Of a DNA stretch of 64,000 nucleotides, positions 14,332 through 40,016 are shown one piece after another. The position numbers and the translations under genes were made by a program. The notes under the pieces were generated by a model. It searched no databases. It was not told where the DNA came from and worked only from the letters and a program-made list of their open reading frames with translations. Source of the stretch: an uncultured delta proteobacterium (GTDB taxonomy: Bacteria; Desulfobacterota; Desulfobacteria; Desulfobacterales; JAHEIW01); assembly GCA_963706575.1 (NCBI GenBank), contig CAVPNL010000006.1, positions 544,001-608,000 of the forward strand, in the 5' to 3' direction. Positions within the stretch are counted from its first letter, which is position 1; each line of letters starts with the position of its first letter.

Positions 14332-14369
14332 TACCTCCAGGTGTCATCCGACACCTGGAGGTTTTTATT
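14332..14369 (+). terminator. Intrinsic terminator/attenuator hairpin between aprA and qmoA
   Basis: ACCTCCAGGTGTC-ATCC-GACACCTGGAGGT followed by a T-run. Confidence 0.7.
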
Positions 14370-14384
14370 AGTACGGAGGGAAGT

Positions 14385-15662: not shown

Positions 15663-15676
15663 GAGGAGAGTCAGAC

Positions 15677-18013: not shown

Positions 18014-18022
18014 TAATTGAAT

Positions 18023-18195
18023 ATTGATGAATTCGTAAAAAGTCGAATTCATCAAGTGTTTGGCGTTTCATGTTTGGTGTTTGGTATGAAATATATGATG
18101 CTATATCGGCATGTTAGAATAATAAACACTAAATACCAAATACAAAACACACTCGCAAAAAGGCTGCTTTTCTGACTTTTTACGAAACTATCAAT
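18023..18195. mobile_element. MITE-like element with 22-bp imperfect terminal inverted repeats
   Basis: ATTGATGAATTCGTAAAAAGTC ... GACTTTTTACGAAACTATCAAT (19/22 match), enclosing inverted GTGTTTG/CAAATAC-like heptamers. Confidence 0.6.
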
Positions 18196-18221
18196 TTTCA
18201 TTCTTCAATTCCGTAGGAGGT

Positions 18222-19385: not shown

Positions 19386-19407
19386 ATAAGAGACTGGAAC
19401 AACAAAT

Positions 19408-19442
19408 AAAAAAGGGAGCGCGCCTTGCGGCGGCTCCCTTTT
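19408..19442. terminator. Bidirectional terminator between convergent qmoC and sat
   Basis: AAAAAGGGAGC...GCTCCCTTTT hairpin. Confidence 0.7.
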
Positions 19443-19471
19443 GGTTTCTGCGCGTCTTTTAGAGGATCAAA

Positions 19472-20746
19472 TCAATCTCCGGTAGCAGCTCCATGCAGCT
19501 TGATCTCAACTTTGTCGGTCAGGCCTTCGTAGTATCCGCGCAGAATTTCAACGACTTCGTCACGTCCAAAGTGATCCGGCAACGCTTCGCCTTCTGAAAG
19601 CATTTTGCGCAGCATGGTTCCGCTGAGCAGCACGCGATCCCCTTTTTCGTGCGGGCAGGTTCGCAGGGAAGCCATGCCGTCACATTTGTAGCAGTAAAAG
19701 GTCCAGTCGATTTTCAGCGGTGCACACAGCAGCGCTTTGCCTTCTTCTTCCGGGCATGGGATTTTATCAAAGATGGTCTGGGCTTCGAACATTCCGTAAA
19801 AATCACCCACGCCGGCATGGTCGCGGCCGATGATCATGCGGGAACAGCCGTAATTTTGCCGGAAAGTGGCATGCAGCAGGCCTTCGCGGGGTCCGGCGTA
19901 GCGCATGTCGAGCGGATATCCGCCCTGGACGACTTTATCTTCAACGAAATAATTTTTAACCAGTGAATCAATGCATTTGACGCGAACTTCAGCCGGGATA
20001 TCACCCGGTTTCAAATTGCCGACCAAGGAATGAATATACACCCCGTCGCAAACTTCGACGGCAATCTTGCAAAGGTATTCATGTGAACGATGCATGGGAT
20101 TTCTGAGCTGAAGTGCAGCCACTTCGCTCCAGCCGCGGTCTTCAAATATTTTGCGGGATTCTTCCGGTCGCATGTAAACCCCGGCATACTTGGTGGGATA
20201 ATTGCCTTCACTGAGCACCTTGACCGGTCCGGCCAGGCTGATCTCTTTTTGTTCCATGACCATCTGAACGCCCGGATGGTCGTCTTTGGCGATTTTCCAG
20301 AACTCCTCAGCTGTGGCGGTGCCTTCACCCATGTAGACCTTCTCACATTCAAACTTTTTGTCGGCTTCGGTCATTTCAAATTTTTCGGTGACCGTCATGG
20401 TGGCCATGATCTCATCGCCTTTCGGGTCATAAAGCGCAATTTCTTCACCCGCGCCGATGCCTTCCGCATCCTCTTTTGAAGCCGATAAGGTCACGGGGAT
20501 GGGCCAGAAAGTCCCGTCGGCCATCAGAAAGTTTTCACAAACACCTTTCCAATCCGCTTTCGTCATGAAACCGGTCAACGGGCTGAATCCACCGATGCCC
20601 ATCATGATCAAATCGCCCTTTTCACGCGGGGAGACCGGAATTTTTTTAAGGCCTTCAGCTTTTTTCTTTTCCGCTTCCAGCTCGGCGCCTTCAAGCAGGC
20701 AGCAGGTCAGTCCTTTTCCGCCATGAGGGGGAATTAAATTAGCCAT
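19472..20746 (-). CDS. sat: Sulfate adenylyltransferase (dissimilatory ATP sulfurylase)
   Basis: [50 protein letters not shown]. Confidence 0.97.
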
Positions 20747-21034
20747 TTGTTTACCTCTCCTTTCAATCTGGTTTTCTATAATCAAGTCGCCCAAAACGAC
20801 TATTATTCTTTTATATAAAAGGGTAATGATTAGTAAGGATAGCCGCTTTTGTCAAGCGGAATTGCGTTTTTGAAGCAAAGATTTCGCGATAAATTTGGCC
20901 GGTGGTGTTTTTGGGGTTAAGAAGGGCGATTTTGTTAAATTTTTGCTTGATTTGAGTACCGCTTCCGGGTAAATGACAACGGTAATTTCGCGCAAATTTG
21001 AATTTCCGGCCTTTGCGGAATTGGAGCTTTAAAT

Positions 21035-21996: not shown

Positions 21997-22253
21997 ATCT
22001 CACACGGCGTTTGTGCTCGAAAAGGGTTAATCTTAATTCATGGTTTCAGGTTTCAGTCACCGGGTTCAAAGGTTCAACGTTCAATGGTTCAGAGGTTAGA
22101 AAAAAGAAGACAGATGTCAGAGGGCAGATGACAGATGAAAATCGGAAAGTAGGGCAGCCCTCTGCGGCTGCCGAAAACAGCGACCGGCAGCCAGATCCCA
22201 TAACCTTTGAACCTTTGAACCCCTGAACGCTGAACCTCAGAACCTTTGATAGC

Positions 22254-23252
22254 CTACCGATACGTATTCAACCCCACAAAAGTGCCGCCGTTTTCCCGGC
22301 ACAGGACGCGCATTAAAGTGGCAAAACGTTCGCCGGTGTTGCCGCGCGCCTGGGTTTTGGCCATTACCACTGGAAAACCGACGGCATGTATCCGGACGCG
22401 CCGCGAGCCGTCTTTTGTCCGTTTGTTGATGCGATCCACGGTGTCGATGACCGGTTGAATCCGATGCCCGCTGAATTCATCACCAAAAACATACAGACTT
22501 ATTTTCTTATCTGTTGCATAAAATGTTCTGATCGCAGCGGTGATGCCCTCAACCGGGCTGCTGTTGCTGAACGCGCGCCAGGAGCTGAGTCTGGAAATAA
22601 TGGCCCGGCGGCGGGCGGGTGTGTCCGGAATCCATTTGCCCCGGTATTGTGAAAACATATATTCGCCCATATCGTTCATAATTTGAATGCCCTTGACTTT
22701 CGGGTATACATCCAGGGTTTCTCTTAACTTTCTCTGCACCAGAGGCCAGGCGTTGCGCTGCATGCTGCCCGAGGTATCGATAATAAAGATAATGTATTCG
22801 CTGTCTACCGGAATGCCGCCGACGGAGCGATCCATTTTTCGGGGCTGAGTTTTCAGCAGGCGCCGCATCTCTTCGGTTAATTCCTGCATGGCGCGGGCCA
22901 GTTTGCCTTCAATAATATTTTGCACCTGGGCGGTGTCTTTTGAGCCCGCAAACTGGCCTTCAATTTTGGACAGATCTCCCTGCAGTCTTGCCAGCCGGAT
23001 TTTTTCTTCCGACAGTTGCTCATTCTTGGCCGTCAGGTCTCGATTCAGTATGGCGGTTTCGCCCCGGATTTCCACCAGCTCTTCTTCGAGCCGGATTATT
23101 TTGGCTTCCAGATCGACTTTAACTTCTTCGATAATCAACGGTTCGGCGAATTTGGATAATACAAACAGCAGAATCACAGCTCCGAATCCGCAGCAAATGC
23201 AGTCCAGAAACGATAGGCTGAATATTTGTATGTCTCTTCGGCGCTTTCTCAT
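22254..23252 (-). CDS. TM(Asp)-coiled-coil-vWA protein
   Basis: N-terminal FSLSFLDCICCGFGAVILLF, heptad-rich stalk, MIDAS IIDTSGSM. Confidence 0.85.
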   Translation of the reverse strand: MRKRRRDIQIFSLSFLDCICCGFGAVILLFVLSKFAEPLIIEEVKVDLEAKIIRLEEELVEIRGETAILNRDLTAKNEQLSEEKIRLARLQGDLSKIEGQFAGSKDTAQVQNIIEGKLARAMQELTEEMRRLLKTQPRKMDRSVGGIPVDSEYIIFIIDTSGSMQRNAWPLVQRKLRETLDVYPKVKGIQIMNDMGEYMFSQYRGKWIPDTPARRRAIISRLSSWRAFSNSSPVEGITAAIRTFYATDKKISLYVFGDEFSGHRIQPVIDTVDRINKRTKDGSRRVRIHAVGFPVVMAKTQARGNTGERFATLMRVLCRENGGTFVGLNTYR

Positions 23253-23324
23253 TATCTTAGCAACACGATCTCAACAAACATTTGGCCAATACTGTTACAT
23301 CCACACGCGGTCCCCAGCAGCCGG

Positions 23325-23448
23325 ATTTAGGAGCGCTATCGCTTGAGGAGCGCTGCGCTTTAAGATCAGAATCGTCTCAACCTTAAGTTCCAAAGGAACG
23401 CTCCTCGAGGCTCAGAGAGCCGCTCATAGAAGCCCGCAGGGCTGCTCA
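23325..23448. repeat. GAGC 9-mer/hairpin convergent array (second copy)
   Basis: TTTAGGAGC-GCTATCGC-TTGAGGAGC-GCTGCGC ... inverted units shared with 9175-9302 and 51288-51355. Confidence 0.7.
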
Positions 23449-23505
23449 TTTTTACTTTGCCATAGGCAATAAAACCGCAATCCAAAATCCGAAATCCAAA
23501 ATCCT

Positions 23506-24594
23506 CTATGGCCAATCCTTCGAAGGCGCAAAAAAAGAACCGCGGGTGCTTTTTGCCAGACGCCAGTAAGCATCGGCGGCCAGCGGGTCGCCTTCCATGG
23601 GATATAAAATAATATTGACCGGTGCGCCCGGAAGCTTGCCGATGGCATCATTAAACAGGCTTAGGCGTTTTTTACCGGACACCCGTTTGCGCCAGGGCTT
23701 GCTTGACCCCATGGTCGGCAGACCGTCCGTCAGCAAAAAAATATTGTCCGGTGCGGGCTTCATCGCAAGCATGGCGGTGATTGCGTTTAAAAGGCTGGTG
23801 CCTTTTTCCGGAACGACGCTGCGGATTTGATCTGCGGACTGGTTGAGTTGATCCACATTACCGGCATCCAGCCAGGTTCCCTGGGTGTTTTTGAGTAAAG
23901 GGGCGGCAGCTTCGTTAAAGGCATATATCTGGAATTGGCTTGTTAGTGGAAGCTGGGTGCTCAACCAGTTAACAGTGGCAACGACCTGCTGCCATTTGCT
24001 GGATTTTATTTTTTCTTTAGCGCTGAGGTTACGCCGCCGAATAATTCCAACGACCGTCTCATCGAGCATGCTGGCGGAGGCATCCACCAGAATAAATATG
24101 CGCCGGCCGCCCATCTTTAAATCGGTTAAATACTGACGGTCCCCATGTCCGGGGAATTTTTGCAGCCGGCTGCCCATGTCGTCCTGGGTCTTGGCACCGG
24201 CTCTCAGTCGCTTGAGTTCTTCTTCCAAAGATTTCAGATCGGCCTTTAATTTGTTGACATGTGTCTTGGTGGCCAGAGTATCATCTTGTCTGTCGGCCAG
24301 CTCGATCTTCTTTTGTTCAAGAATATCTATGATTCTGCGAGATAGACCTTGTGTGCGGACCAGAGTCGTTTCTGTGTGTTCGATGGCATTGCGGGCCTGG
24401 ATTAAATCTTTTTTTCCTTCCAGGACTTCATGCTCCATGCGATCCACCTCAGCTCGAAAATCCGAGGTAATCGAGTCGCGCTGGGCGGCACTCTTGGCAT
24501 TTACCAGCACAAACAAAAGGATGATCGCCCCCAACCCGCAGGTAATAATATCCAGAAAGGATAAGTTGAACACATTGACCGATCTACGTTTCAT
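23506..24594 (-). CDS. TM(Asp)-coiled-coil-vWA protein (paralog)
   Basis: MKRRSVNVFNLSFLDIITCGLGAIILLF; MIDAS DASAS...GTS...LLTDG; start overlaps the stop of the upstream gene. Confidence 0.85.
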   Translation of the reverse strand: MKRRSVNVFNLSFLDIITCGLGAIILLFVLVNAKSAAQRDSITSDFRAEVDRMEHEVLEGKKDLIQARNAIEHTETTLVRTQGLSRRIIDILEQKKIELADRQDDTLATKTHVNKLKADLKSLEEELKRLRAGAKTQDDMGSRLQKFPGHGDRQYLTDLKMGGRRIFILVDASASMLDETVVGIIRRRNLSAKEKIKSSKWQQVVATVNWLSTQLPLTSQFQIYAFNEAAAPLLKNTQGTWLDAGNVDQLNQSADQIRSVVPEKGTSLLNAITAMLAMKPAPDNIFLLTDGLPTMGSSKPWRKRVSGKKRLSLFNDAIGKLPGAPVNIILYPMEGDPLAADAYWRLAKSTRGSFFAPSKDWP

Positions 24595-26005
24595 CAGCTT
24601 CGCTATCCAGACACGCAATGAGGTTAAAAATCTCACCCGGTGTTCCCACCCGGACCTTTTGCCCCAGCAATAAATTGGTTTGCCCTTTTACCGGATTTTC
24701 ATCCACGAAAGTACCGTAGGTGCTGTGGTCGTTTAGAACAACCTGGTTTCCCCGCAATTGGATAATGCAGTGTTTTCTGGAAACCCCGGCGATCTTCCCC
24801 TGAATTTGGATGCCCGATTCACCGGCAACCTTTTCCAGGCCAATGATTAAGGGCTTTTTCGTTATGGGATACGCCAGATGGCGATATAGGATGTGGGTGG
24901 GTTGTTGTTGTCCCTCGGCGGCTTTTCGGGGTTCTTCATATGATATGGAACCATCATTCGGCAGCGGGCGTGAGGTCAGGAAAGGCGCGCTGCTCCCGGC
25001 CTGCTGTTCAAACAGCGGACCGGTGAATTTCAGGATTCCCAGTGCACCGGCGCCGGGTTGCAGTTCAATGATACTGCAATTTTCGATTCCAGCCATCATT
25101 TCTTTTATGCCGGGTAAACGGGCAATCCGATCTGTGAGCATCAAAACCGGTCCGGCTCCCGCCTTTCCATGACGCTCATAAACGCGGCTAACAAGACGAC
25201 GCATTTGCTCAAACACGGGCGCCCCTATTTTGAAAAAAAGATCGCGCCTCAACGTTACGTGATATACTTTGGATCCGCCCGTCATTTCAAAATAGACGTC
25301 GGAATCCCTGCAAAGCTGTCTCAAAATACCGGGCAGGCGGTCATAGAGCTCCTGTTCGGTGGCGGCCTGGTGCAACGGGTCAAACCGGGTGCTGCGCACA
25401 AATTCTTCTGCAATGGCATCCACCCATCTTCGATATAATTTACTGAGGCCAGTTCCTTCTGACGATATCGAATTTTTTCGGTTTAACTGATCCGCCCGCT
25501 CAAGGCGGGTAACTTCAAAGCGGTGCAAATGCAAATCCAGGTGCAATAACAGTCCTTCTGGCAGTCGCTGCGGAACCGCTGCGACTGCCAGGGGAACAAA
25601 ACCTTTTACCGGCATGCCCAGCTCCTGGGCGATCCCTAAAATAAAGCCTAAATGCTCCCGGGTATAAAAACCCGGAACGCCAATAACCATTTCCCTTCCT
25701 TGATGCTTTACGGTCTGCCAGATGCGGGCAAAATGCGCGAATGCGATTTCAGCGTGATTCTGCGCAAACGGATTGGGTTGTTCTAAGGGTTCGATATTCA
25801 ATTGGTCCCAGAATTTATTTAGCGTCTGCCGGGGATACAGGTGCGCTTTTCTTTCAGCAGCTACGCCGACAATTAACCCCTGTTTTTCTGCTAAGGCAAA
25901 TCCGGGGCTCTCAACGCTGTTTCCGTCAACCTTCAGCAATCCGGCCGGTTCGGCTCCGGCGACCAGGATACCGGCGTCACTGAGTTCAAGGCCTAATAAA
26001 CTCAT
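24584..26005 (-). CDS. Hsp70/actin-fold-like domain fused to C-terminal FHA domain
   Basis: LGLELSDAG, VIGVPGFY...IAQELGM, LLHLDL align by eye to DnaK NBD motifs; C-terminal VSRKHC...DHSTYGTFVD FHA motif. Confidence 0.7.
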   Translation of the reverse strand: MSLLGLELSDAGILVAGAEPAGLLKVDGNSVESPGFALAEKQGLIVGVAAERKAHLYPRQTLNKFWDQLNIEPLEQPNPFAQNHAEIAFAHFARIWQTVKHQGREMVIGVPGFYTREHLGFILGIAQELGMPVKGFVPLAVAAVPQRLPEGLLLHLDLHLHRFEVTRLERADQLNRKNSISSEGTGLSKLYRRWVDAIAEEFVRSTRFDPLHQAATEQELYDRLPGILRQLCRDSDVYFEMTGGSKVYHVTLRRDLFFKIGAPVFEQMRRLVSRVYERHGKAGAGPVLMLTDRIARLPGIKEMMAGIENCSIIELQPGAGALGILKFTGPLFEQQAGSSAPFLTSRPLPNDGSISYEEPRKAAEGQQQPTHILYRHLAYPITKKPLIIGLEKVAGESGIQIQGKIAGVSRKHCIIQLRGNQVVLNDHSTYGTFVDENPVKGQTNLLLGQKVRVGTPGEIFNLIACLDSEADET

Positions 26006-26086
26006 ACAACCACCCTTTCTAATGATGGCTCAAAATCCGAAGATTTGTTTAATCCGCAATCCGCAATCTAAAATCCAAAATCGGGA

Positions 26087-26890
26087 TCATTTTGTATACA
26101 AATGACTGATCAGATTTTCATCACAGTAAGTTTCCGCATCCAGCACGTAGTGCTCCTGCAGCTGTTGCAATTGATGCAAAAGAAACATCAGTCCAATACT
26201 GATTAACAGTGCGATCAACGTTGAATTAAATGCGACACCCAGGCTGCGGGTAACGTCAAAGATGTCGCCTTCAATGGCTTTATGCGCCTGGCCCAGCGCA
26301 TCTCCGATCCCCCGAACCGTACCGATAAACCCGATTGATGGGATGGCCCAGGCGATATAACGTATCATAGATAATTCAGACTCAAGTCTTTCAGCTTCTG
26401 AATCGCAGTAGGCATGTGTGGCGCTGGCAACATCCTGGATGTTGCGCGTTGTGCTGAACCGCTGCAAGCCTGCCAGCAATGCCCTGGGAAGCAGCGCCTC
26501 GCGTTGTTGTGCGGGCAGGGCCTGAATCTGCCGGGATACATCCCGGGTGTCTTCGGGCAGGATGCGCTCGCCTTCAGCCAACGGAATCAAGTCCATCTGC
26601 AGCAAGGCCCTTTGCCGCGAGGTTTTAAAGGCTTTATACCCCATGATGGCAATTGCCCAGAACATCAGAATAAAACAGGCTTCCTGTTCATAATCACGGA
26701 TTAACACGAAAACAGAGCGTTCCGTTACCTGGGCTTTGTTTTCTGCCATCTGAATGGCCTGCTGTGCCAAAATGGCGTCCGCCCTGGGCCGAATCATGGC
26801 CACATAAATGGCATGTACAATAATCACGATGATGATCAACGCAAACACCTGGTAAAGGAACTCGAAAGAAAAGGGAAAACTTTTTTTCAT
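26087..26890 (-). CDS. MotA/TolQ/ExbB proton-channel family protein
   Basis: AIPSIGFIGTVRGI and LGVAFNSTLIAL TM signature. Confidence 0.9.
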   Translation of the reverse strand: MKKSFPFSFEFLYQVFALIIIVIIVHAIYVAMIRPRADAILAQQAIQMAENKAQVTERSVFVLIRDYEQEACFILMFWAIAIMGYKAFKTSRQRALLQMDLIPLAEGERILPEDTRDVSRQIQALPAQQREALLPRALLAGLQRFSTTRNIQDVASATHAYCDSEAERLESELSMIRYIAWAIPSIGFIGTVRGIGDALGQAHKAIEGDIFDVTRSLGVAFNSTLIALLISIGLMFLLHQLQQLQEHYVLDAETYCDENLISHLYTK

Positions 26891-27018
26891 TAGAACCTCT
26901 TGTCTTCGGCTTTTTAATAGCAAAATGTACCTTGGTGATTGTAGGGACAAGTGCCTAAAATGCCTAAAATGATCTAAATTGACTAAAGTTAAGGATGTTA
27001 TCTTTTTCTATTTGAAAA

Positions 27019-27471
27019 CTAAATGTCGTATGGAAAATCGACCGCCTGTTCCGCTTCAATTTTTTCCGAAGGTTGAAAATCTTTTAACGGTTTTTTGACA
27101 GCGGTTGATTCTTTCTCTTCATCGGTTTTAGATTCGGGTTCTGTGCTCATCGGCGACGGTGTCTTTTTTTCATCGGTCGCCGTCTGGGTCTCGTTCTGCG
27201 CAACAGTTACCCGAGATGGATTAGAAATGGTTTCAAAACCCCATCTAAGGCCCAATGGCTGCGTTGCAGGCCTCCGATAAATGCTCACATACCCATGTAT
27301 GCTGCGCTTTCTCGATCGGCCTGCGCCTTGCCCTTGAACCTGATCTGAGATTTTGAAACCACTTCTATATGTATCCGCCCGAACATCCCATTTTACAATA
27401 ACCAGAAAGCCCAGCAGTGCAACACCGATTATTGCCAACTTTTTGAATCCTGCCAATGTTTTCACGATCAT
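27019..27471 (-). CDS. Hypothetical single-TM/secreted protein with C-terminal FQPSEKIEAEQAVDFPYDI motif
   Basis: Hydrophobic N-terminus, low-complexity linker, located within the operon; start may instead be 27492. Confidence 0.65.
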   Translation of the reverse strand: MIVKTLAGFKKLAIIGVALLGFLVIVKWDVRADTYRSGFKISDQVQGQGAGRSRKRSIHGYVSIYRRPATQPLGLRWGFETISNPSRVTVAQNETQTATDEKKTPSPMSTEPESKTDEEKESTAVKKPLKDFQPSEKIEAEQAVDFPYDI

Positions 27472-27493
27472 AATTACGCCCCGCAGCTCCATC

Positions 27494-29932
27494 TCATTTG
27501 ACGTAGCGACATACACGAAACCCAAGATCCGGTCGTTTGGCGTCGCTGTAATCCCGATACGCCAGCCTTAATTTGCTCATGCCGGCATATTTCCAGCTGG
27601 CACCTTTAACCACATGATGCTTTCCATCGGGAGGTCCGGCTGGATCGATATCGGCTTTATTGGTATTATAGGTATAAATTGTATAAAAGTCATGGCACCA
27701 TTCCGCGACGTTGCCGCCCAGGTTATATAACCCCAGATCATTGGTCTTAAATTTTGCCGCCGGCGCCGTGACCGGGTAGCCATCGCTGTAATTTTCAATA
27801 TAAGCCGGCAACAGTTTTTGGGCCGACGTATCGGCATAATTTCCGGAAGGCGAAGTCGGCGGAAACTGATTCCCCCAGGGGTATTTGAGAGCGCTTTGAT
27901 TTCTTGTGAATCGGGCGCAATATTCCCATTCGGCCTCGGTAGGCAACCGATATCCCGTACCGATGGGCTCAGCAGCGACCAGGCGGCCGCCCTTTTTAAC
28001 ATAGGCGGGTGGCAAAGATTCCTTGGCGCTGAGCCAGTTACAGAACAACGCCGCCTGCTCCCATGTCACCTGAACCACGGGCTGATCGTCCTGTGACAAA
28101 CGCTGTCCTTTGAAGGTACCGGAATTGTGACTGGACAAAAATTGTTTAAATTCTTTATTGGTTACTTCCCATTTGCCCATATAAAACGGTCGTTGCAGAA
28201 TAATTTTTCGAAGTGTTTCGTTGGTGCGGCGGCCTTGTTCCCGGCGCGAAGAGCCCATGGTAAAAGGTTCGGGGCGGACGAGTTTCAGCGCATATCCATT
28301 TTGAGCTGTGATAACACCAGCAGGACCGGTGGGGTCGGATTTCAGACGGCTTAACGTAATTTTGATTTCTTGCGGAAATCCGGGGCGCGGGGTGACGCGG
28401 GTTCCATAGGGCTCATATCCTTTTTTTATAATTTCCAACTGGTGGCTGACCGCCACCAGCTTTAATTCCGGCGGAACTTTCCCCTGATTTTTTCCGTTTA
28501 AAACGAGCTGGGCATCGGCCGGCACAACTTGGAAGCGAATAACCCCCATTCTCGGTTTCAAATCCACAGCCAGATTTTTCATCTTGCCGGTAGCCACCTG
28601 AACCCGGCGAGATTCGTTTTCATAACCGGCCTTGGAAATTCGAATTTCATGTTCGGTATTTGCGGACAGCTTGACCTTTAAAGGTGTTTTACCGACAAAT
28701 TTTTCGTCGATGGTTATATTGGCGCCGGCAGGCTGAGTTTGCAGGGCCAGGGTACCGTCGTCCGGCTGAAGCCGGATATCTTTTATGGATTGGGGTTGAT
28801 TCGGCGCCACTGCCAGCTGAGTCTGCCAGGTTTTAAATCCCTCAGCACTGATTTGCAGCCGGTAGTTTCCTTGCGGCAATTCAATTGTCAAAGGGGTATT
28901 GCCTGCCGCTTTTCCGTCAATGGATATAAAAGCCCCTTCTGGAATCGAACTGATAAACACATCAGACCAGCCGGGGACAAGCGCAAAATCAAAGGATTGT
29001 TCTTCCGGACAACCGGCGATTTGCACTTCTGTTTTGATGTCCTGGTAATTATCCATTTGAATTTCTAAAATCCGTTGGCCGGCTTTTACTTCAAGGTCTG
29101 AAACGGGTGTGATACCGACTTCCGATCCATCAATGATGACCCGGGCGCCGTTGACAAAGGCCGTCGGATCACCGGCTTGATGAGCCTGTAAAGAAATGCG
29201 TCCGGGGAGTCTTTCCATTTGAAATCGGAGCGTCTGGCTTTTGTCTGTCCCCACCTCAAAGGGCTGTTGTAATGCAAAATAGCAGTCTTTAGAGGCATGC
29301 AGCGTATACGTTCCGGGCCGCAGTAGAAAATGCCCGCCAAATCTGGGGGCAATCAGGCTGCCGCCAATGGAAATTTGATCCGGCTGGGGCTCAATCTGGA
29401 TCATGATTTGCCTGGCAGTAAAGACAAACCAGGCGGCGATAATCAGCAAAAGGAAACTGAGTCCAATTGTTAATCCGATGAATCGCCGATAGCGGCGGAT
29501 TGAACCCGCAGCAGGTCCTCGCCGTTGCGGCCGAAAGGACAGGGGCTTGATTTTTAATGCCGCATCCTCGCCGGTGACAGTCGGCGTCCTATCCGTATCG
29601 GCTGCTGTTTGGCGGGAGACGACTTCGATGATAAATTGGCTGCCTTCAACCTTAAAATTAATTTTGCAGGAGCCGATTTCAAGCAGATCTGCATGCATCA
29701 ACCAGGCGGAACCATCCAATTTTCGGTGATTATGTTGCACCGCAACATCAGATTGGCCGACTTGCACAAAAGGCCGCTTTTGCGACAAGCCGATATAGGC
29801 AACTTCCGTTTCGGTTTTGAGATCGCGGATCCGGATGTTTGCCGTCGGACCGGCTCCGATAATAATCGGAAAGCCTTCTTCAGCCACGCTGCGTTCACCG
29901 CTGTCATCTCGGATTTTATAGCGGATTTTCAA
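27494..29932 (-). CDS. FHA-like + TM + multi-PEGA + FGE-sulfatase(SUMF1)-fold protein
   Basis: Repeated SxPxGA.I.IDG...G.TP PEGA units; FTMGS, EVTN, PVVQVTWEQA..FCNWLS, YRLPTEAEWEY, GNVAEWC, GFRV. Confidence 0.88.
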   Translation of the reverse strand: MKIRYKIRDDSGERSVAEEGFPIIIGAGPTANIRIRDLKTETEVAYIGLSQKRPFVQVGQSDVAVQHNHRKLDGSAWLMHADLLEIGSCKINFKVEGSQFIIEVVSRQTAADTDRTPTVTGEDAALKIKPLSFRPQRRGPAAGSIRRYRRFIGLTIGLSFLLLIIAAWFVFTARQIMIQIEPQPDQISIGGSLIAPRFGGHFLLRPGTYTLHASKDCYFALQQPFEVGTDKSQTLRFQMERLPGRISLQAHQAGDPTAFVNGARVIIDGSEVGITPVSDLEVKAGQRILEIQMDNYQDIKTEVQIAGCPEEQSFDFALVPGWSDVFISSIPEGAFISIDGKAAGNTPLTIELPQGNYRLQISAEGFKTWQTQLAVAPNQPQSIKDIRLQPDDGTLALQTQPAGANITIDEKFVGKTPLKVKLSANTEHEIRISKAGYENESRRVQVATGKMKNLAVDLKPRMGVIRFQVVPADAQLVLNGKNQGKVPPELKLVAVSHQLEIIKKGYEPYGTRVTPRPGFPQEIKITLSRLKSDPTGPAGVITAQNGYALKLVRPEPFTMGSSRREQGRRTNETLRKIILQRPFYMGKWEVTNKEFKQFLSSHNSGTFKGQRLSQDDQPVVQVTWEQAALFCNWLSAKESLPPAYVKKGGRLVAAEPIGTGYRLPTEAEWEYCARFTRNQSALKYPWGNQFPPTSPSGNYADTSAQKLLPAYIENYSDGYPVTAPAAKFKTNDLGLYNLGGNVAEWCHDFYTIYTYNTNKADIDPAGPPDGKHHVVKGASWKYAGMSKLRLAYRDYSDAKRPDLGFRVCRYVK

Positions 29933-32340
29933 ATCTTAACCTCGCATCTGATGGTCACGCGTAGCGCGTTTTGCCCGGGTTTGATGATGATCTTTTTGCG
30001 GACATCCTGGTAGCCATCGCGCGTTCCCACAACGGTATAGGTGCCGGGCCGCAGGCTCAGTTCCCGGCTCTCGAAGCGGCCGAATTTCCCAACTTTATAA
30101 ACAGCAACGTCCGTAAACGTATCGGATTCGATAATTATTTTTACCGGGGTTTGAGCAGCACCCACGATTTGAACAAGTCTCTCGAATCGTTCTTTGATTT
30201 GCGGACCTTTGGGGTCAATTTTTTCAATTTCATCAATGAGCGCAATGGCGTTTTGAAGCTGGGGATCTGATTCCAGTACTGCCGGCTGTTGCAGAAAAAA
30301 ATTAATGCGCTTGTCAATCAGAATGCGCTCCCGGGCGCGTTCTTTCCCCCGGGCGGCAAACTGGACATTGGCGTCTATTTTAATAACCTGCAAATAGGCA
30401 TCCAACGCCTGTTGCCAGTTTTCAGCCTGTTCTGCCGCGGTCGCCTTTTGGCGATAGGTTTCAATGCGGGCCAGGCGAATCGCTTGATCCACCTGGGCCA
30501 GTGCGTCCTTAACTTCTCGGGATTCCGGCCGGAACGATTTTGCTTTCAGCAGTTTTGCCCGGGCAAGTTGATAGTCATTCCGATGCAGCGCCGTCAGTCC
30601 CTCAGACATCAGCAGCTGAAATTCTGTATCACGGATTTGGCCTTTAACCCGGGCGACAGCCTGCCGCGCTTCTTTTGATTCGGGGTCCAGTCTCAGCGCC
30701 TCCTGATAATCGGCATGCGCAAAAGCGATTTTACCCGCTTTTTCATGACGGTTCCCTGATTCCAACAGCTGCAGGACAGCATCTAAATTTTTGGCGCGCT
30801 GGCGGCTGTTGCGGGCTAACCGGTTCTCTGGATCAATCATTAAGGCGATGGAGAATTTTTGCTGGGATAGCTCAGCGTTTCCCTCATCCAGTGCCGTCTG
30901 GCCCTCGGCAAGCAGTTGTTTTAGAACCGGCTCGATCTGGTCGACTAAGGTTTGAGCGCTGGCGGCTGCGGCCGCATATTTTTCGGCGGCTGCGGCATAA
31001 TCGTTTTCAAGTAAAAGTCGATCCGCTTCCTCCGAAAGTTGGATCATTTCGACATATACTTGATTTCCCCATTGCGAAACACCTTTTGCATCCAATTCCT
31101 GTTTGAGCTGCATAAATTCAGCCAGCTTTTTCTCCGCTTCCCTTTTTTCAGCAGCAATCTTGGCGGGGTCCGGTGCGGTTTCGGGTAAAGCCTCAGGTGC
31201 CTCGATGGCCTTTTCAGATTCGGGTTGATGCGCTTCGCTATGCGACATTTCCGTCCGGCCCGGTTCCGGCGGTTTTGTGGGTAGATATTGCCACAGCCAT
31301 AACCCGCCGGCCACCAATACGACTAACGCGATAATTAGGGTCGCACCTTTGATCAGGTTGCTGTGCCCGGTTAAAGGCAGCCCTTTGCCGGGAGCCTTTG
31401 GCGTTACCCTTAGCGGGGTAATAATTTCCGGGCGGACCGGGGCCGAATTTGGCTCCGCAAAGCCGGAACCTGACCTCTGCGACAACCGGCGATGAGCGAC
31501 ACCATTGTCAAGCATGCGGTCGAAGCGGCTTTCGATCGCTGCCATGCTGGATGGGCGATCAACGGGTGTCTTCGCCAGCATGCTGTCAATCAGATCTTCC
31601 ATGGAGTCGGAGACCTGGGCATCAATGGCCAGCTGGTTTAACCGGCGGTTAACAGGAATAGGAGACTCATGCAGAATTCTTTCACGGGTAATATCCGGAT
31701 AAAACGGTGGATAACCGGTGAACAGTTCATAGAGCAGGACGCCAAGGGCGTAAATATCGTCGGATGGATGGGGCGGGCGGCCCTCAAGTTGCTGCGGGCT
31801 CATGCAAAACAGCGAACCGCCGGATGTAATTTCCAGTGCATAGCGGCCGGATTTGAAAACGCCGGCAATCCCAAAGTCTGTCAGCCGGGGTGTTTTCTGC
31901 GCATCAAGCAAAATATTGCCGGCTTTGACGTCTCGATGGACCAGCCCCTGTTCATGGGCATACCCCAGGGCGTTGATCAGCGGCCGAATCAGTTTGATCA
32001 TGTTCACGCTACTATTGGGTTCGAACTCCCTGCGGTGAAAGGCCAGGTCTCTACCGTTGATATATTCCATGGAGATGAACGCCAGCGCATCAGATCGATG
32101 AAAATCAAAAACGCGGACGATGTTGGGATGGACCAATAGACGGGTATTGCGGCATTCATTTTTTAATAGATTGATGCGGTCCGGATCTGATGCCAGCTGT
32201 GGATTTAGAATTTTTATGGCGATCTGGATTTCAAGCTCCAGATCCCAAACGAGCCAGACCTGCCCCATGCCGCCTTCTCCGATCATCTCAAGCAGCGAAA
32301 ACCGAGAAAGCAGTATTTGGTCTTTTTCTAAATTCGGCAT
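29929..32340 (-). CDS. Membrane Hanks-type Ser/Thr kinase with periplasmic TPR-like region
   Basis: GEGGMGQV, IAIK, HRDVKAGN, DFGIA, MSPQQ, DIYALG; TM at ~aa 333-352; helical repeats. Confidence 0.92.
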   Translation of the reverse strand: MPNLEKDQILLSRFSLLEMIGEGGMGQVWLVWDLELEIQIAIKILNPQLASDPDRINLLKNECRNTRLLVHPNIVRVFDFHRSDALAFISMEYINGRDLAFHRREFEPNSSVNMIKLIRPLINALGYAHEQGLVHRDVKAGNILLDAQKTPRLTDFGIAGVFKSGRYALEITSGGSLFCMSPQQLEGRPPHPSDDIYALGVLLYELFTGYPPFYPDITRERILHESPIPVNRRLNQLAIDAQVSDSMEDLIDSMLAKTPVDRPSSMAAIESRFDRMLDNGVAHRRLSQRSGSGFAEPNSAPVRPEIITPLRVTPKAPGKGLPLTGHSNLIKGATLIIALVVLVAGGLWLWQYLPTKPPEPGRTEMSHSEAHQPESEKAIEAPEALPETAPDPAKIAAEKREAEKKLAEFMQLKQELDAKGVSQWGNQVYVEMIQLSEEADRLLLENDYAAAAEKYAAAAASAQTLVDQIEPVLKQLLAEGQTALDEGNAELSQQKFSIALMIDPENRLARNSRQRAKNLDAVLQLLESGNRHEKAGKIAFAHADYQEALRLDPESKEARQAVARVKGQIRDTEFQLLMSEGLTALHRNDYQLARAKLLKAKSFRPESREVKDALAQVDQAIRLARIETYRQKATAAEQAENWQQALDAYLQVIKIDANVQFAARGKERARERILIDKRINFFLQQPAVLESDPQLQNAIALIDEIEKIDPKGPQIKERFERLVQIVGAAQTPVKIIIESDTFTDVAVYKVGKFGRFESRELSLRPGTYTVVGTRDGYQDVRKKIIIKPGQNALRVTIRCEVKI

Positions 32341-32556
32341 ATAAATTCTAAAGGTGAATTTTAGATCGTTCCGTTTTTTGGGGCATTATATGAAAAATCA
32401 CGAAAATATGAAAGGCCCAGATCTCTGAGTGAAGCCATTTTCGTGATTTTAGGTGCTGAATCTAATTGCAGCCGTGCACTTTGGGATCATTCCCGGTGCA
32501 CGATTTTTCGACAACCCGTATCAAAATGAGTGAAGCCGATTCGCGTTTGATCAGGG

Positions 32557-33777
32557 TTATGGGTTTTGATCCATATCCTGTTCTTCAGGAGACGGGGTCG
32601 GTTCAAAGCCGGTTTCGGCGAAATAAATTTGACGCAGCAGCGCTTTCCAGCGTTTAAACTGCTCTTCAGCAGACCCGGTCAATTCATACTGCTGGCCCTC
32701 GAATTCCATTGTTACAGGTTGCATTTCATTCCCAAATGACTCGCTGAGTTCCTCGATTGCAGCGGAATGCATTTGGGCTTCTTTGGATACATTCCAGCCG
32801 CTGATAAATACCTGTCCCCCGATAATGACCATCGCCGGCGCCATGGCCCGGCCGATGTTTGAGTTTTGTGAACCGGCCGCTATCGCGCCGGCAATTAACA
32901 GGGCGCCGAGCAGCTGTTTGGTCATGGCTTCTCGTTTAATCGTTGCGGCGGCTTCGCGTTCGGTCAGGTTCAGCTGACGCCAATTTTCGTATGACGGCCA
33001 CATTTGATTGTAAAACCCATCATATTGCCGATTGAGGGTGTCCACGTACATATACTCACGCTCTCTGATTTTCAGCAATCGGGCCATCATGGGATCATTG
33101 TCCGCCGGCAGCCGCTTGACGCTGAGGCGTCCCTTTTTATCCTGCGCGAGATAGCCATCAAATGCATCCGGTGCAAACTCCTGGGCAAATTTTAGCTTCG
33201 AAACGGTTCGAATCGTTTTAATTTCGGCAACACCTTGTTTCAATTTGTATTTAGCCAGATCATTGGCAATGGTATTGTAGAGATTTTGATAGGCATCTTT
33301 TTCACCCACCCGATTGCCGGAATAGTCAGACGCTGAAGCCTCGGCGCTGTATTTTCGCTTAAACCACCGGTTACCGGTTGCATCCACCACATCGATCTCT
33401 ATCACCAAATCCTCACCATTTGACTCGAGAATTTTGCCTTTCACCAGAAGGTCGACACTGTTCGTTTCGGCCGGAACCACCTGGATGGCGCCCCAGTGGC
33501 CGCTCTGGTGCAAGGTGTTTTTCAGGTGATAGGGAATAAAGTGGGTTTCAGCCTTGCGGATATCTGAGCTTGTGCCTTCATCCTTGGCATCTTCGGGGGT
33601 CAATTTCTTGCTTTCGAAGACCAGGATGCCGATATCCATTAACTGCTCCTCCGGGATTTCGGTTTTGGCCTGCTCGATGGGGGTCGGGCCGACCGTGTGA
33701 GAACTATAGGTGGCGCAGCCTGAAAAGAAGAGGATGGCCGAAAAAAATAATACGGTTTTGTAAGTGTTGAATTTCAT
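32557..33777 (-). CDS. Hypothetical lipoprotein
   Basis: Signal peptide with lipobox FFSGC; 406-aa ORF in the operon. Confidence 0.8.
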   Translation of the reverse strand: MKFNTYKTVLFFSAILFFSGCATYSSHTVGPTPIEQAKTEIPEEQLMDIGILVFESKKLTPEDAKDEGTSSDIRKAETHFIPYHLKNTLHQSGHWGAIQVVPAETNSVDLLVKGKILESNGEDLVIEIDVVDATGNRWFKRKYSAEASASDYSGNRVGEKDAYQNLYNTIANDLAKYKLKQGVAEIKTIRTVSKLKFAQEFAPDAFDGYLAQDKKGRLSVKRLPADNDPMMARLLKIREREYMYVDTLNRQYDGFYNQMWPSYENWRQLNLTEREAAATIKREAMTKQLLGALLIAGAIAAGSQNSNIGRAMAPAMVIIGGQVFISGWNVSKEAQMHSAAIEELSESFGNEMQPVTMEFEGQQYELTGSAEEQFKRWKALLRQIYFAETGFEPTPSPEEQDMDQNP

Positions 33778-33791
33778 TTTTTATTAATTTG

Positions 33792-34931
33792 TTATTGGGT
33801 GTTTTTCTTATACTCTTCGTATTCTTTCCACAGTTTTTCTTTCAGTTCCGGATCCGTTTCGTTTTCAGCCGCCTCCCGCAGTTGTCGGGCAACGATATCA
33901 TCGTCTTCCTTGCTGTAACGGCTACCCGGTTCGCGTTTGGAGCCGGCGCCTTCGTCTTTGGACTTGTCGGCCGTGGCGACCGTATCATCGCCATTTCCCT
34001 GTTGGTTCTCGGAGCCTTTTTCATCACGGGATGCATCCTTGTCACCCGTTTTGCCTTGCTGGCCTTCCTTGTCCTGCTCTGACGTCTCATCAGCCGATTC
34101 AGATTCGTCGCTGTCTATTTCGACGCCTTTTTCCTTTAGCCGTCTGGCGGCATCCGCTGCTTCCTGGGCCAGATCACGCATTTTCGCAGTCGATTCGGTT
34201 TCGATGGTCTCCATTTCCTTTAGCAGCAGTGCATCAAATTCACTCAGCGACGCACTCAGCTGGCGGTCCAGTTCCGCGACCTGATCCTGGACTTGCTCTT
34301 CAGGGATTTGTTGATCCGATACCTTCGGTGGTTCGCTGGAATCTTCTTTGCCAGATGAATGCCTGGCGTAGGCGCTTTCCATTTTTGCGACCATCCTGCG
34401 GTTTTCAGCGACCATGGCCTGGACGCGTTCAAGGTAGGCTTCGTAGTTGCGAATTTCTTCAGCAGAGGCATTATCGGATTTCTTGAGTGTTTCAAGTTCG
34501 GCAGCAATCCGTTTTTCCGTGGCCTGGCTGACGCGCAAATCGTCCCGGGCTTTTGCCAGTTTGGCGTCAGCGGTTTGCGGGGTTGTTTTGCGGCTCTGCG
34601 GCATGCGTTGAACGGCTTCCTGCGGTCGGGCTTCGGTTGCACCCGCTGAAGCGGTTTGACGATCCGGTGATCTTTCTTTAGATTCCGACTGTTGGGTAGC
34701 AGCCCCCTGTGGAGAAGCTGTCTGGCTGGTTTGCGATTTTTCCTGTGCTCCCGGTTCGGCCGACTCGGCCGGTATCGATGAAGTCGACGGGCTGGTATCT
34801 TTGGTTTGCGAGATTTCCGGCTGCGGAGGTGCAGGTGTAACCGGGGGGGGTGTGGTTTTGCAGGCTGCAAACCACAGCCCGGTCAAGAAGGTTGCCATTA
34901 ATATCAGGGATTTGATTTTGTATTGCCACAT
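33792..34931 (-). CDS. Hypothetical lipoprotein, Pro-rich/coiled-coil
   Basis: Lipobox FAAC; coiled-coil segments; C-terminal DDIVARQLREAAENETDPELKEKLWKEY. Confidence 0.78.
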   Translation of the reverse strand: MWQYKIKSLILMATFLTGLWFAACKTTPPPVTPAPPQPEISQTKDTSPSTSSIPAESAEPGAQEKSQTSQTASPQGAATQQSESKERSPDRQTASAGATEARPQEAVQRMPQSRKTTPQTADAKLAKARDDLRVSQATEKRIAAELETLKKSDNASAEEIRNYEAYLERVQAMVAENRRMVAKMESAYARHSSGKEDSSEPPKVSDQQIPEEQVQDQVAELDRQLSASLSEFDALLLKEMETIETESTAKMRDLAQEAADAARRLKEKGVEIDSDESESADETSEQDKEGQQGKTGDKDASRDEKGSENQQGNGDDTVATADKSKDEGAGSKREPGSRYSKEDDDIVARQLREAAENETDPELKEKLWKEYEEYKKNTQ

Positions 34932-35030: not shown

Positions 35031-35059
35031 AAAATAAGATTTTGCCGATTGGGTGTCAA
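35031..35059 (-). promoter_or_regulatory. Candidate sigma70 promoter for the 22.2-34.9 kb operon
   Basis: TTGACA-17 nt-TATTTT on the minus strand. Confidence 0.4.
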
Positions 35060-35218: not shown

Positions 35219-35311
35219 TGGCGGAGAGACAGGGATTCGAACCCTGGATGGAAGTTTCCCCCCATACTCGCTTAGCAGGCGAGTGCCTTCAGCCAGCTCG
35301 GCCATCTCTCC
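35219..35311 (-). tRNA. tRNA-Ser(GCT)
   Basis: GGAGAGATGGCCGAG...CTCGC-CTGCTAA-GCGAG, long variable arm, GGTTCGAATCC, CTCTCCGCCA. Confidence 0.96.
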
Positions 35312-35361
35312 AAAAAAATTTTCTCAAAATTTTTTTATATAAAATTGCGAAGCAATTTTAT

Positions 35362-35449
35362 TGGCGGAGGGAGTAGGATTCGAACCCACGGAGGTGTTAC
35401 CCTCAACGGTTTTCAAGACCGCCGCTTTCGACCACTCAGCCATCCCTCC
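35362..35449 (-). tRNA. tRNA-Ser(TGA)
   Basis: GGAGGGATGGCTGAGTGG...GCGGT-CTTGAAA-ACCGT, long variable arm, GGTTCGAATCC, CCCTCCGCCA. Confidence 0.96.
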
Positions 35450-36138: not shown

Positions 36139-36603
36139 GCCTGATTTTTATGTCGCACCCGGATCCCTCATAAGATACAGATTTCTATATAAATTATTCA
36201 AAAAACAACCAAACTTGCAGGTTTTGCATTCCGGTCAACCGGATTTAATCCCACCTCAATTCAAGACCCGGATAAGCAAGAGTCAATCCCTGACTCAAGG
36301 CTGACCGATTTATCGATAAAATCATTCTTTTTCGTTGACTTATCCTGAAACTTGTCTTAAAAAAAAATCTTATTCAGTTTTTTAAGTCGTGACTATTTTA
36401 TTGATGATTTTCCAAGATCCACCACAACTTATTTATAATTTAGGCGTTTCGGGTTTTGTAAACGCAGCAGGCCTTCTTAGTCGTGCCAACGATGGAAATA
36501 GCCAGCTAAATCGGTCGGTCGAAATCTCTGCGCAAAGCCCTGTTTGTTCCAGCTAGAGGAGGCAACTGAATTTTTTTTTAATCGCATCAAGGAGGAGGTG
36601 CAA

Positions 36604-37545
36604 ATGGAAACGGAAAAGGCATTTTATGAGAGGTTAGAGAGCAAAGGCGTCTCCCGAAGGGACTTCATGAAATACTGTACGTTCCTGACGGCGGCTATGG
36701 GGCTCTCGTCATCGTTTGTGCCAAAGGTGGCCGAAGTCTTTGCGGCACCGGCACAGCGCCCGCCGGTGATATGGCTGCATTTGGCAGAATGCACCGGTTG
36801 TTCCGAGGCTGTTCTCAGGTCCCAGTACCCCTATATCGACGATTTGATTCTTGAGGTTCTTTCTCTGGAATATCATGAGACGGTTATGGCGGCTGCGGGT
36901 CAGCAGGCTGAAGATCAACTTCAGATGGCACTGAAAAAGTACGCGGGCAAGTTCATCTGCGTGGTTGAAGGTGCCATTGCCACCAAATTCGACGGCGGAT
37001 ACGGTAAAATCGGCGGCCGGACATTTTTAGACATTGCCAAAGACGTAATTCCCAAAGCTGCCGGTGTGATCTGCATCGGATCCTGCTCCAGCTTTGGCAA
37101 TATCCAGGCGGCGAAACCCAACCCCGGCGGATACAAGGGGGTTGGTGAGGTGCTGGGAATCAAGACCGTAAACATCGCCGGATGTCCACCCAATCCGGTC
37201 AATTTTGTCGGTACGGTAGTCAGTTATCTGCTGCTCGGCAAACTTCCCGCCCTGGATGATCTGGGTCGTCCGTTGTTTGGTTACGGGAAATCCATCCATG
37301 ATCAGTGTCCGCGACGGTCTCATTTTGAAAACGAGGAATTTGTGGAGCAATTCGGTTCCGAGGAAGCCGCAATGGGCTATTGCCTTTACAAAATGGGCTG
37401 TAGAGGTCCGGAGACATACAACAACTGCCCGGTGGCCAAATTCAATGACGGCACCAGCTGGCCGGTTGAGGCGGGTGCTCCCTGCATCGGCTGCAGCGAG
37501 CCGAAATTTTGGGATAACTTCACGCCGTTTTATGAGGAACTCTAG
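36604..37545 (+). CDS. Periplasmic [NiFe] hydrogenase small subunit (group 1, soluble)
   Basis: Tat motif SRRDFMK, AECTGCSE, GSC, GCPP, HDQCPR, CLYKMGCRGP, WPVEAGAPCIGCSEP; no C-terminal TM. Confidence 0.95.
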   Translation: METEKAFYERLESKGVSRRDFMKYCTFLTAAMGLSSSFVPKVAEVFAAPAQRPPVIWLHLAECTGCSEAVLRSQYPYIDDLILEVLSLEYHETVMAAAGQQAEDQLQMALKKYAGKFICVVEGAIATKFDGGYGKIGGRTFLDIAKDVIPKAAGVICIGSCSSFGNIQAAKPNPGGYKGVGEVLGIKTVNIAGCPPNPVNFVGTVVSYLLLGKLPALDDLGRPLFGYGKSIHDQCPRRSHFENEEFVEQFGSEEAAMGYCLYKMGCRGPETYNNCPVAKFNDGTSWPVEAGAPCIGCSEPKFWDNFTPFYEEL

Positions 37546-37583
37546 TCTTAGCATAGCTATCCAGAAAAAAAGGGAGGAACCAT

Positions 37584-39233: not shown

Positions 39234-39257
39234 TGAGCCGCCAGGCCATGTTGCTTG

Positions 39258-39292
39258 AAACGGCCTCCCGAATCTGCGGGAGGCCGTTTTTT
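39258..39292 (+). terminator. Intrinsic terminator after hydrogenase large subunit
   Basis: AAACGGCCTCCCG-AATCTG-CGGGAGGCCGTTTTTT. Confidence 0.8.
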
Positions 39293-39424
39293 ATGGTGTT
39301 GACGGTTCGTCCTGTTCTAGTGTAATACGCATACTCAGGATAAAAATATTCAATCGGCATTTGCAGGGGCGGGCTTTACGCCCGCTCTTTCATTAGCGGC
39401 TTAAATTCTAAAAATAGGTTAAAA

Positions 39425-39946: not shown

Positions 39947-40016
39947 AAACCCGGGCAAGGCCTTTGCCAATCAATGCTAGCATTCAACAAACGTTGCTTC
40001 TGAGAGTTGCCTGCAC

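Follow-up and report, generated by a model that had tools for sequence, protein, structure and literature searches.

5:2 ion-driven motors have only a handful of known outputs, namely flagellar rotation, Ton uptake, Tol-Pal, gliding, the type IX secretion system (T9SS) and Zorya. A further arrangement, in which TolQ-like pentamers hold heterologous TPH-vWA pairs rotating in the pore, has been predicted in silico and presented as AF3 models, its function being described there as unknown (Williams-Jones et al., Mol Biol Evol 2025, PMC12204202, section 8, Fig. 4c-d). Here we describe a nine-gene operon in a 64,000-nt stretch of DNA (the window) from an uncultured delta proteobacterium of the Desulfobacterales (contig CAVPNL010000006.1, positions 544,001 to 608,000; genome 5.67 Mb, 91.8% complete). 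Its motor core shows every sequence feature by which the text of PMC12204202 describes that class. The operon, common to many marine and sediment bacteria, appears to encode a real envelope machine of eight genes, to which optional signalling parts are added and whose motor is of a predicted class. It would mark another output of such motors.

The operon is conserved across phyla and has an eight-gene core

The operon consists of nine open reading frames (ORFs), g1 to g9, all on the minus strand between positions 34931 and 22254. They are co-oriented and partly overlapping, as an earlier reading made from the letters alone (the sequence-only reading) had claimed. From g1 to g9, the intergenic gaps are 14, 216, -4, 22, 128, 81, -11 and 253 nt when preferred starts are used, which include internal ATGs at 27471, 26890 and 24594. 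Pfam recognized kinase and TPR domains in g3 (5.5e-44), PEGA and formylglycine-generating enzyme (FGE) domains in g4 (4.5e-56 and 6.9e-45), MotA_ExbB in g6 (1.4e-13), FHA in g7 (4.7e-09) and VWA_2 in g8 (9.2e-06). It gave no match for g1, g2, g5 or g9, and none of the nine proteins rose above a curated NCBIfam cut-off.

A GTDB search returned at least 595 confirmed operon loci. The best 80 of these, kept for comparison, span Desulfobacterales, Woeseiaceae, Pseudomonadales and Acidobacteriota, together with a single Planctomycetota record. Gene order g1-g9 is kept wherever contigs reach, with one exception in which g2 has moved downstream. Recurrence of the same order in four phyla, seen in this cross-phylum neighbourhood comparison, is far beyond chance. 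Within the host family, g6 is present in 23/24 genomes at 79-97% identity; it was found in 1/16 other families of the order. A g9 profile matched 40/400 sampled genomes of Gammaproteobacteria, the class to which a Woeseiaceae carrier belongs (one genome was unscored, one unpublished genome is in the tally, and four carriers had a single match). It also matched 5/251 Desulfobacterota (one being a distant non-vWA relative) and 4/151 Acidobacteriota. From the g9-profile matches 33 regions were taken, divergent ones and long contigs being favoured. Among cultured bacteria, Methylophaga thiooxydans and M. frappieri carry relatives of a divergent g9; no Idiomarina, the genus of the seed family in PMC12204202, occurs among the 120 matches listed for that g9. 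The reach of the operon thus extends to sediment Desulfobacterales, Woeseiaceae and genomes below 2 Mb.

Most carriers have one copy per genome, retained even in genomes of 1.6-2.0 Mb, and in 8 Desulfobacterales loci the operon lies at a fixed site beside sat. Viral contigs gave 3 loci, one of them close, and plasmids one distant match, so we rejected the idea that the operon is a mobile element. In a g6 tree, built by a quick method with midpoint rooting and containing long branches, the Desulfobacterales clade (27 rows, support 99) sits among gammaproteobacterial rows, which suggests transfer. One genome (G207, C1 and C2; loci L162 and L152) holds two operon copies from different clades, and a distant second g6-like gene occurs in a genome of 1.7 Mb (G323:C1:363780-364409).

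Parts were counted in 83 loci spanning g3-g9, using the 79 with a complete g3 start. This 79-locus set is biased towards relatives of the window, while the 28 genome-sample loci within it are biased towards divergent ones. Both g2 and g6 were present in 77/79 loci, and the two loci without g6 have it elsewhere in the same genome. Among metagenome loci (n=80) long enough to tell, g8 was found in 61/61, g6 in 34/34 and g4 in 19/19; g9 adjoins g8 in 61/61. The kinase was fused in 34/79 loci and fused or adjacent in 36/79 (2/28 in the genome sample), and the FHA-like N-domain of g4 was present in 37/79 (5/28). We found g7 in 66/79 loci, with FHA in 52 (15/28, with FHA in 8). Because they are missing from loci of both oppositely biased sets, the kinase, the FHA-like domains and the Hsp70-like g7 are dispensable, and the core comprises eight genes. 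One genome (G287) has a split operon, with g2 and g3 ~25 kb away.

The motor pairs a TolQ-fold channel with two vWA-headed subunits

The AF2 model of g6 (predicted local distance difference test (pLDDT) 94.3) is closest to TolQ, over residues 57-267 (VIA Z 13.8, root-mean-square deviation (rmsd) 3.8, 201 aligned). ExbB (Z 13.0), ZorA (third-best, Z 10.3) and MotA (Z 9.2) follow, and Foldseek agrees with the TolQ/ExbB fold (E ~1e-3). Residues 1-56 form an extra N-terminal transmembrane (TM) segment and a helix, giving four hydrophobic segments in total. P35, E68, W181, P184, T191, R193 and T224 are invariant (116/116). E68 and R193 are specific to this family; P184, T191 and T224 we take to be the proline and pore threonines of TolQ/ExbB.

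Full-length paralogy links g8 and g9 (HHalign 99.8%, identity 22%). Each has a trans-pore helix (FLD15xxxCG in g8, FLD17xxCCG in g9), a coiled coil of ~100 aa and a vWA domain with a metal-ion-dependent adhesion site (MIDAS), formed by D171-S173-S175/T266/D290 in g8 and D159-S161-S163/S231/D258 in g9. The helix aspartates are kept in 99/102 (D15) and 93/94 (D17) sequences, and the MIDAS residues are near-invariant in both proteins. A g8 profile run against PDB sequences returned coiled-coil matches only. Pfam and NCBIfam found no ExbD, TolR or MotB among the nine proteins, and the histidine of TolA/TonB occurs in the TM helix of 0/59 g3 and 1/92 g4 sequences; g8/g9 are therefore the only candidate shaft. 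In a low-power covariation analysis of g8 and g9, the top pair, I16-C18 (z 7.2), falls in the two helices. These sequence features support the central proposal of the sequence-only reading, that of a conserved trans-envelope apparatus driven by ions and equipped with vWA-headed B subunits.

Two loci (L163:8415-10434 and L174:7637-8326) hold a related system, in which a g6-like channel stands beside a TM-Asp/coiled-coil protein with a non-vWA head, presumably YfaP-like from its appearance, and Ser/Thr kinase and FHA genes lie nearby. The head of the B subunit may be exchangeable.

Kinase, FHA-like domains and g7 are optional additions

The sequence-only reading had inferred an apparatus under phospho-control. 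The kinase of the window's g3 looks active: the catalytic residues are conserved among relatives (K43 25/25, D137 24/25, D155 24/25) and intact here. The motifs G-R, S-x-x-H and N-G are typical of FHA domains that bind phosphothreonine (pThr). In g4, the N-terminal FHA-like domain, for which Pfam gave no match, has T/A/S/G at the pThr-Arg position and no S-x-x-H in 49 sequences; in g7, none of the 28 FHA rows inspected, out of 56, has Arg after Gly. Because the kinase, FHA and Hsp70-like parts are optional and the FHAs are without the pThr-binding residues, phospho-control is not a core feature, and we rejected it as obligatory. The analogy with PpkA-TagQR-Fha fared no better, gaining no support from co-occurrence. 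We scored 49 carriers, many of them metagenome-assembled genomes, with absences to be read as floors. VipA of the type VI secretion system (T6SS) was found in 5/49 and was absent from this 91.8% complete genome, and the operon as a T6SS accessory was rejected.

The rest of g7 gives weak Hsp70 matches (PDB profile E 0.002-0.02; Atlas 0.89, at the level of a lead). D10 is kept in 88/93 and D157 in 83/93 sequences, and the phosphate-2 glycines are replaced. An Hsp70/actin relative with altered phosphate loops is thus weakly supported. The other domain assignments of the sequence-only reading held: kinase-TPR, PEGA/FGE, MotA/TolQ/ExbB, FHA and vWA, the last by Pfam in g8 and by paralogy and MIDAS in g9. 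In the Agl-Glt gliding machinery, the FHA domains of GltG are predicted to serve as scaffolds at the pore and at a TPR protein (PMC11761067), and by this analogy a scaffold role for the FHA-like domains here is plausible. The kinase, the FHA-like domains and the Hsp70-like protein are probably lineage-specific cytoplasmic add-ons that serve as scaffolds or regulators.

Some loci carry further signalling genes. Those of Woeseiaceae type have upstream a PP2C phosphatase gene (14 loci; L072:1148-2005) and a second kinase with a zinc ribbon (L060:402-1688). At L150:2888-4648, a kinase-less operon copy is preceded by a gene for a vWA-FHA protein and followed by one for a kinase.

The intact kinase residues, the rank of ZorA among the g6 folds and the phosphatase and second kinase of Woeseiaceae-type loci would all suit an envelope-damage sensor or anti-phage system, with a Zorya-like motor or a TagQRST-PpkA-like arrangement, signalling via kinase and FHA. 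But the kinase is absent in 43/79 loci, the FHA domains are without the pThr Arg, and few carriers have a T6SS. PADLOC, run as a check for known defence systems, recognized no Zor or other system-specific model, giving generic kinase-domain matches and one weak LmuB coiled-coil match only. Moreover, the high identity of g6 and its near-universal presence in the host family are unlike mobile defence genes. We consider such a function very improbable.

Candidate outer-membrane parts and a proposed mechanism

The AF2 model of g2 (pLDDT 82.6) has an N-domain of FlgT/PelC/CsgG/TolB-N/PqiC-like fold (Foldseek E 7e-6 to 1e-3). In VIA it matched the FlgT ring (Z 10.0, rmsd 5.3, 177 aligned), PelC (Z 9.5, rmsd 2.6, 113), the TolB N-domain (Z 8.7, rmsd 2.8, 102) and the curli complex (Z 8.4, rmsd 3.6, 125). 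Its fold relatives include several that form rings beneath the outer membrane and others that do not. The N-domain is followed by a long helical hairpin (72+43 residues, mature 209-330) with a hydrophobic tip, and one arm reaches a Kyte-Doolittle value of at least 1.6 in 39/51 sequences. A g2 profile found no match among PDB sequences and unnamed clusters only in the Atlas. On the model, g2 is a candidate outer-membrane ring.

The lipoprotein g1 has a long disordered linker, and its conservation is confined to a helical motif at the C-terminus, DDDIVARQLREAAExExDPELREKLWxEY. In some relatives the signal peptide is of the plain type. Probably g1 is a flexible tether. The product of g5, described in the sequence-only reading as a small TM protein, turned out to be a signal-peptide protein with a conserved C-terminus, (FxPSE)xIxxxxxVxFPxDI-COOH, and that description was dropped. 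This motif is present in 105/107 loci (86/107 by strict pattern, 18 more by inspection among 20/21 misses, and the last one seen separately). A search for g5 fused to longer proteins found none among 8000 candidates, which is weak evidence. Covariation of g5 with all eight candidate partners reached similar top values (z 4.1-6.3, effective number of sequences 59-105), so no g5 partner can be named. In g4, the FGE-like segment has no Cys among the common residues of 104 sequences. Judged at what we take to be the position of the catalytic cysteine motif of FGEs, both catalytic cysteines are missing, and we rejected a catalytic role.

From these parts we infer a stoichiometry, a rotation, every contact and an output. 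We favour, and hold to be probable, a reading in which a 5:2 motor driven by ions performs mechanical work at an outer-membrane assembly. Five g6 subunits would form a TolQ-like pore, into which one g8 and one g9, as a heterodimer, would insert their Asp-bearing helices. Ion flow (H+ or Na+) would turn this dimer relative to the pore. The coiled coil of ~100 residues (~15 nm) would carry the two vWA heads across the periplasm, where Mg-binding MIDAS sites would take hold of acidic groups on a partner and so pull or turn that partner. The likeliest partner would be an outer-membrane assembly on g2, a PelC/CsgG-like ring whose hydrophobic hairpins would enter the membrane. The g1 protein and the FPxDI peptide of g5 would link this assembly, and the inner-membrane rods g3 (TPR-PEGA) and g4 (PEGA-FGE-like) would brace it. 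As to output, the most likely is that the motor energizes the gating of the g2 ring or a translocation through it, though we propose this tentatively. A fuller version, rather doubtful at present, is an undescribed envelope-spanning translocation, in which a rotary 5:2 motor would use integrin-like vWA heads as a ratchet and cargo would be gated or threaded through an alpha-helical outer-membrane pore of a g2-type PelC/CsgG-like ring, the FPxDI peptide serving as linker or plug. If true, such a system would occur in roughly one in ten gammaproteobacterial species, abundant sediment lineages among them.

Several observations weigh against this mechanism. In the g2 model the hairpin tip has pLDDT <50, and the second hairpin arm is hydrophobic in only 19/51 sequences. 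The g2 fold also fits non-ring proteins (TolB-N, LptE-like), and Z values of 8-10 are near background for such searches. In g6, Val219 stands at what is presumably the position of a conserved Glu in TolQ/ExbB. Some g5 relatives have Asn in place of the penultimate Asp, which weakens a role of this side chain as MIDAS ligand. One carrier (G310) gave no g2 match, and no substrate, outer-membrane barrel or cargo gene is recurrent beside the cluster. Against our reading of the signalling parts, Woeseiaceae-type loci add a phosphatase gene and a second kinase, so that phosphorylation may control the machine in some lineages.

Many of the same data could be read as a second Tol-like system, whose motor would move or release outer-membrane tethers (g1, g2, g5) for envelope upkeep or remodelling, with no passage through g2. 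TolQ is the closest fold to g6, g2 shares the fold of the TolB N-domain, and single copies retained in small genomes and, in Desulfobacterales, at a fixed site also agree with this. However, TolB is retained in 49/49 carriers, for which reason a Tol-Pal substitute was rejected. The core is without a peptidoglycan-binding OmpA/Pal domain (an OmpA-domain gene lies downstream in 22 loci only), and distribution is patchy, as in Desulfobacterota. We judge a second Tol-like system unlikely.

Genomic context and other features

Genes for sat, PilZ and a zinc ribbon border the operon on one side and two tRNA-Ser genes on the other. The latter (GCT, TGA; 35219-35449) are in tandem directly upstream of the operon and may mark an old integration site. 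Rfam found these two tRNAs in the window and nothing else. A promoter candidate upstream of g1 (Table 1) belongs to a set of 21 promoter-type sites that is not significant against shuffles (16.7 +/- 4.9). Genes and gaps were evenly covered in four sequencing runs (on contigs of related strains), a pattern for which DNA origin is possible. The wider flanks (12297-20794 and 36544-53752) hold sulfate-reduction genes (aprA-like, qmoABC-like and sat) and two [NiFe]-hydrogenase gene pairs accompanied by hyp genes, a content ordinary for the host group. The hydrogenase region also encodes two MMPL/RND-like membrane proteins that each carry a fused signalling output (40017-42989 and 54938-58126), a histidine kinase in one and cNMP-binding and GGDEF domains in the other.

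Degenerate short AT-rich repeat tracts occupy gaps between genes (22062-22249, 23472-23517, 26051-26082 and 26948-26979), and the tract downstream of g9 has inverted arms. The linker of g5 carries an in-frame insertion resembling a miniature inverted-repeat transposable element (MITE). The genome holds this element at 89 loci, 58 of the copies being near-full. Among its six frames one is free of stops, and this is the frame used by the insertion in g5; relatives have an empty site. An open frame extends for 120 nt to either side of 3/58 copies, of which the one in g5 is the clear case of an insertion into a protein. The element has no Rfam match.

Other genes accompany the operon elsewhere. 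Upstream of g1, 13 loci (L157:15556-17337, L161:15267-16580 and 11 more) encode a TPR protein whose tail looks TonB-C-like by eye, although Pfam gives TPR only. Downstream of g9 there are genes for two uncharacterised lipoproteins, of 225 and 244 aa, each found in 15 loci. The downstream OmpA-domain gene, a feature of Woeseiaceae-type loci, also has a Gly-zipper (for example L072:14422-15156).

Table 1. Features of the operon and its surroundings (window positions)
Feature	Position	Strand	Basis or remark
Sigma-70-like promoter candidate, TTGACA-17-TATTTT	35031..35059	-	Upstream of g1; consensus match only
g1, 379-aa lipoprotein (Cys24); core	33792..34931	-	No Pfam/NCBIfam match
g2, 406-aa lipoprotein (Cys21); core	32557..33777	-	AF2, Foldseek, VIA, hydropathy
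g3, Ser/Thr kinase (optional), TM, periplasmic TPR, C-terminal PEGA-like; TM-TPR-PEGA core	29929..32340	-	Pfam, conservation
g4, FHA-like (optional), TM without SHLS histidine, PEGA repeats, FGE-like; core	27494..29932	-	Pfam, conservation
g5, small secreted protein; core	27019..27471	-	Signal peptide, disordered linker, C-terminal motif
MITE-like 147-nt palindromic repeat, TA ends	27221..27367		In-frame insertion in g5 linker
g6, 267-aa TolQ/ExbB-fold channel subunit; core	26087..26890	-	AF2, fold, conservation
g7, cytoplasmic divergent Hsp70/actin-like domain (weakly supported) and FHA; optional gene	24584..26005	-	Profile searches, Pfam, conservation
g8, B subunit 1; core	23506..24594	-	Pfam VWA_2, conservation
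g9, B subunit 2, g8 paralogue; core	22254..23252	-	HHalign, conservation

Comparison with known systems

The sequence-only reading had found no TonB, Tol-Pal, flagellar, T6SS or T9SS gene in the window, and Pfam, run on the 28 other long ORFs, upheld this. Reading translations identified four further MotA/ExbB-family matches elsewhere in the genome. One lies in a tolQRAB-pal-like cluster and one in an exbBD-tonB-receptor-like cluster; the other two are a flagellar motA and a member of another motAB-like pair. The Tol-like and Ton-like clusters are thus the host's own and separate from the operon. With Tol-Pal (TolQ5R2-TolA-TolB-Pal) and Ton (ExbB5D2-TonB), the operon shares the channel fold, pore residues and, in g2, a TolB-N-like domain. 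Unlike them, it is without a TolR/ExbD domain, an SHLS transducer, a TonB-C domain, Pal and a beta-propeller. A part of the flagellum was rejected, FlgH being present in 22/49 carriers. Zorya ZorAB shares the 5:2 motor fold (ZorA), but the operon has no ZorA tail, OmpA-like ZorB or ZorC/D/E. With TagQRST-PpkA-Fha1 of the T6SS, the shared inventory comprises kinase, FHA, FGE-like, vWA and lipoprotein domains; the operon differs in having no ABC transporter, and no T6SS was found in 44/49 carriers.

T9SS and Bacteroidetes-type gliding motors have the architecture GldL5M2-GldK/J/N. In common with this scheme, the operon would have a 5:2 motor with a periplasm-spanning dimeric arm and a non-catalytic FGE-like domain near the outer membrane. 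Its motor is of the MotA/TolQ family, not GldL, and the FGE-like domain sits on an inner-membrane PEGA rod, not on a lipoprotein. Matches of g4 fell below the cut-offs for GldK (137 versus 350 bits) and GldJ (48.9 versus 458), so it is an equivalog of neither. A GldM search was positive in 0/5 carriers and equally silent in the control genomes.

The Agl-Glt machinery of Myxococcus gliding, as described in PMC11761067, shares heterodimeric B subunits, an FHA-TM-periplasmic protein, a small disordered linker, a TPR protein and an actin-fold partner. The operon differs in having vWA heads for TolR-like domains and PEGA/FGE for TonB-C, and in having no GltA/B/H barrels or CglB; Pfam and NCBIfam gave no match to these or to the GltG/J TonB-C domain in the nine proteins. 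The AgmX/PglI tail family rose above its cut-off in 1/5 carriers, outside the operon, and not in this genome. Such likenesses (to AglR5QS, GltG, GltF as a small disordered bridge, GltD/E and MreB in PMC11761067), the below-cut-off GldK match of g4 and the many carriers from sediments, by record titles, would fit a surface motility or adhesion machine of Agl-Glt or GldLM-GldKN type. Against it stand a core without outer-membrane barrel, surface adhesin, TonB-C domain or Glt family match, the absence of actin-like g7 in 13/79 loci and the flagellar FlgH of many carriers. Methylophaga is not known to glide. In the text of a Woeseiaceae paper (PMC12175321), 'gliding' has 0 occurrences and ExbB is mentioned only for iron uptake. 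This makes a motility or adhesion machine quite unlikely, and we retain the motor acting on an outer-membrane assembly.

That the operon could be assigned to no described system, as the sequence-only reading held, stands for T6SS, the flagellum, Tol-Pal, T9SS and Agl-Glt; it does not stand for the motor core, which fits the class predicted in PMC12204202. Literature searches, which miss most subscription papers, found no paper on the whole operon. The text of PMC12204202, figures apart, names no partner genes (Fig. 4c may show neighbours), and PEGA has 0 occurrences in the text and supplement searched. With the class as described there, the operon shares a tightly linked tolQ-like gene without tolR/exbD, a heterologous pair of TM-tethered vWA proteins (here g8/g9) and, by sequence, the trans-pore Asp, the threonine ring and the lack of an SHLS motif. 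Unlike that text, the present analysis defines five more core genes and the optional kinase, FHA and Hsp70-like parts. The motor core was thus already known as a predicted class, and the partner genes and the split into core and optional parts appear to be new. With an eight-gene core, optional parts set apart, a candidate ring and cultured Methylophaga carriers, the 2025 prediction becomes testable.

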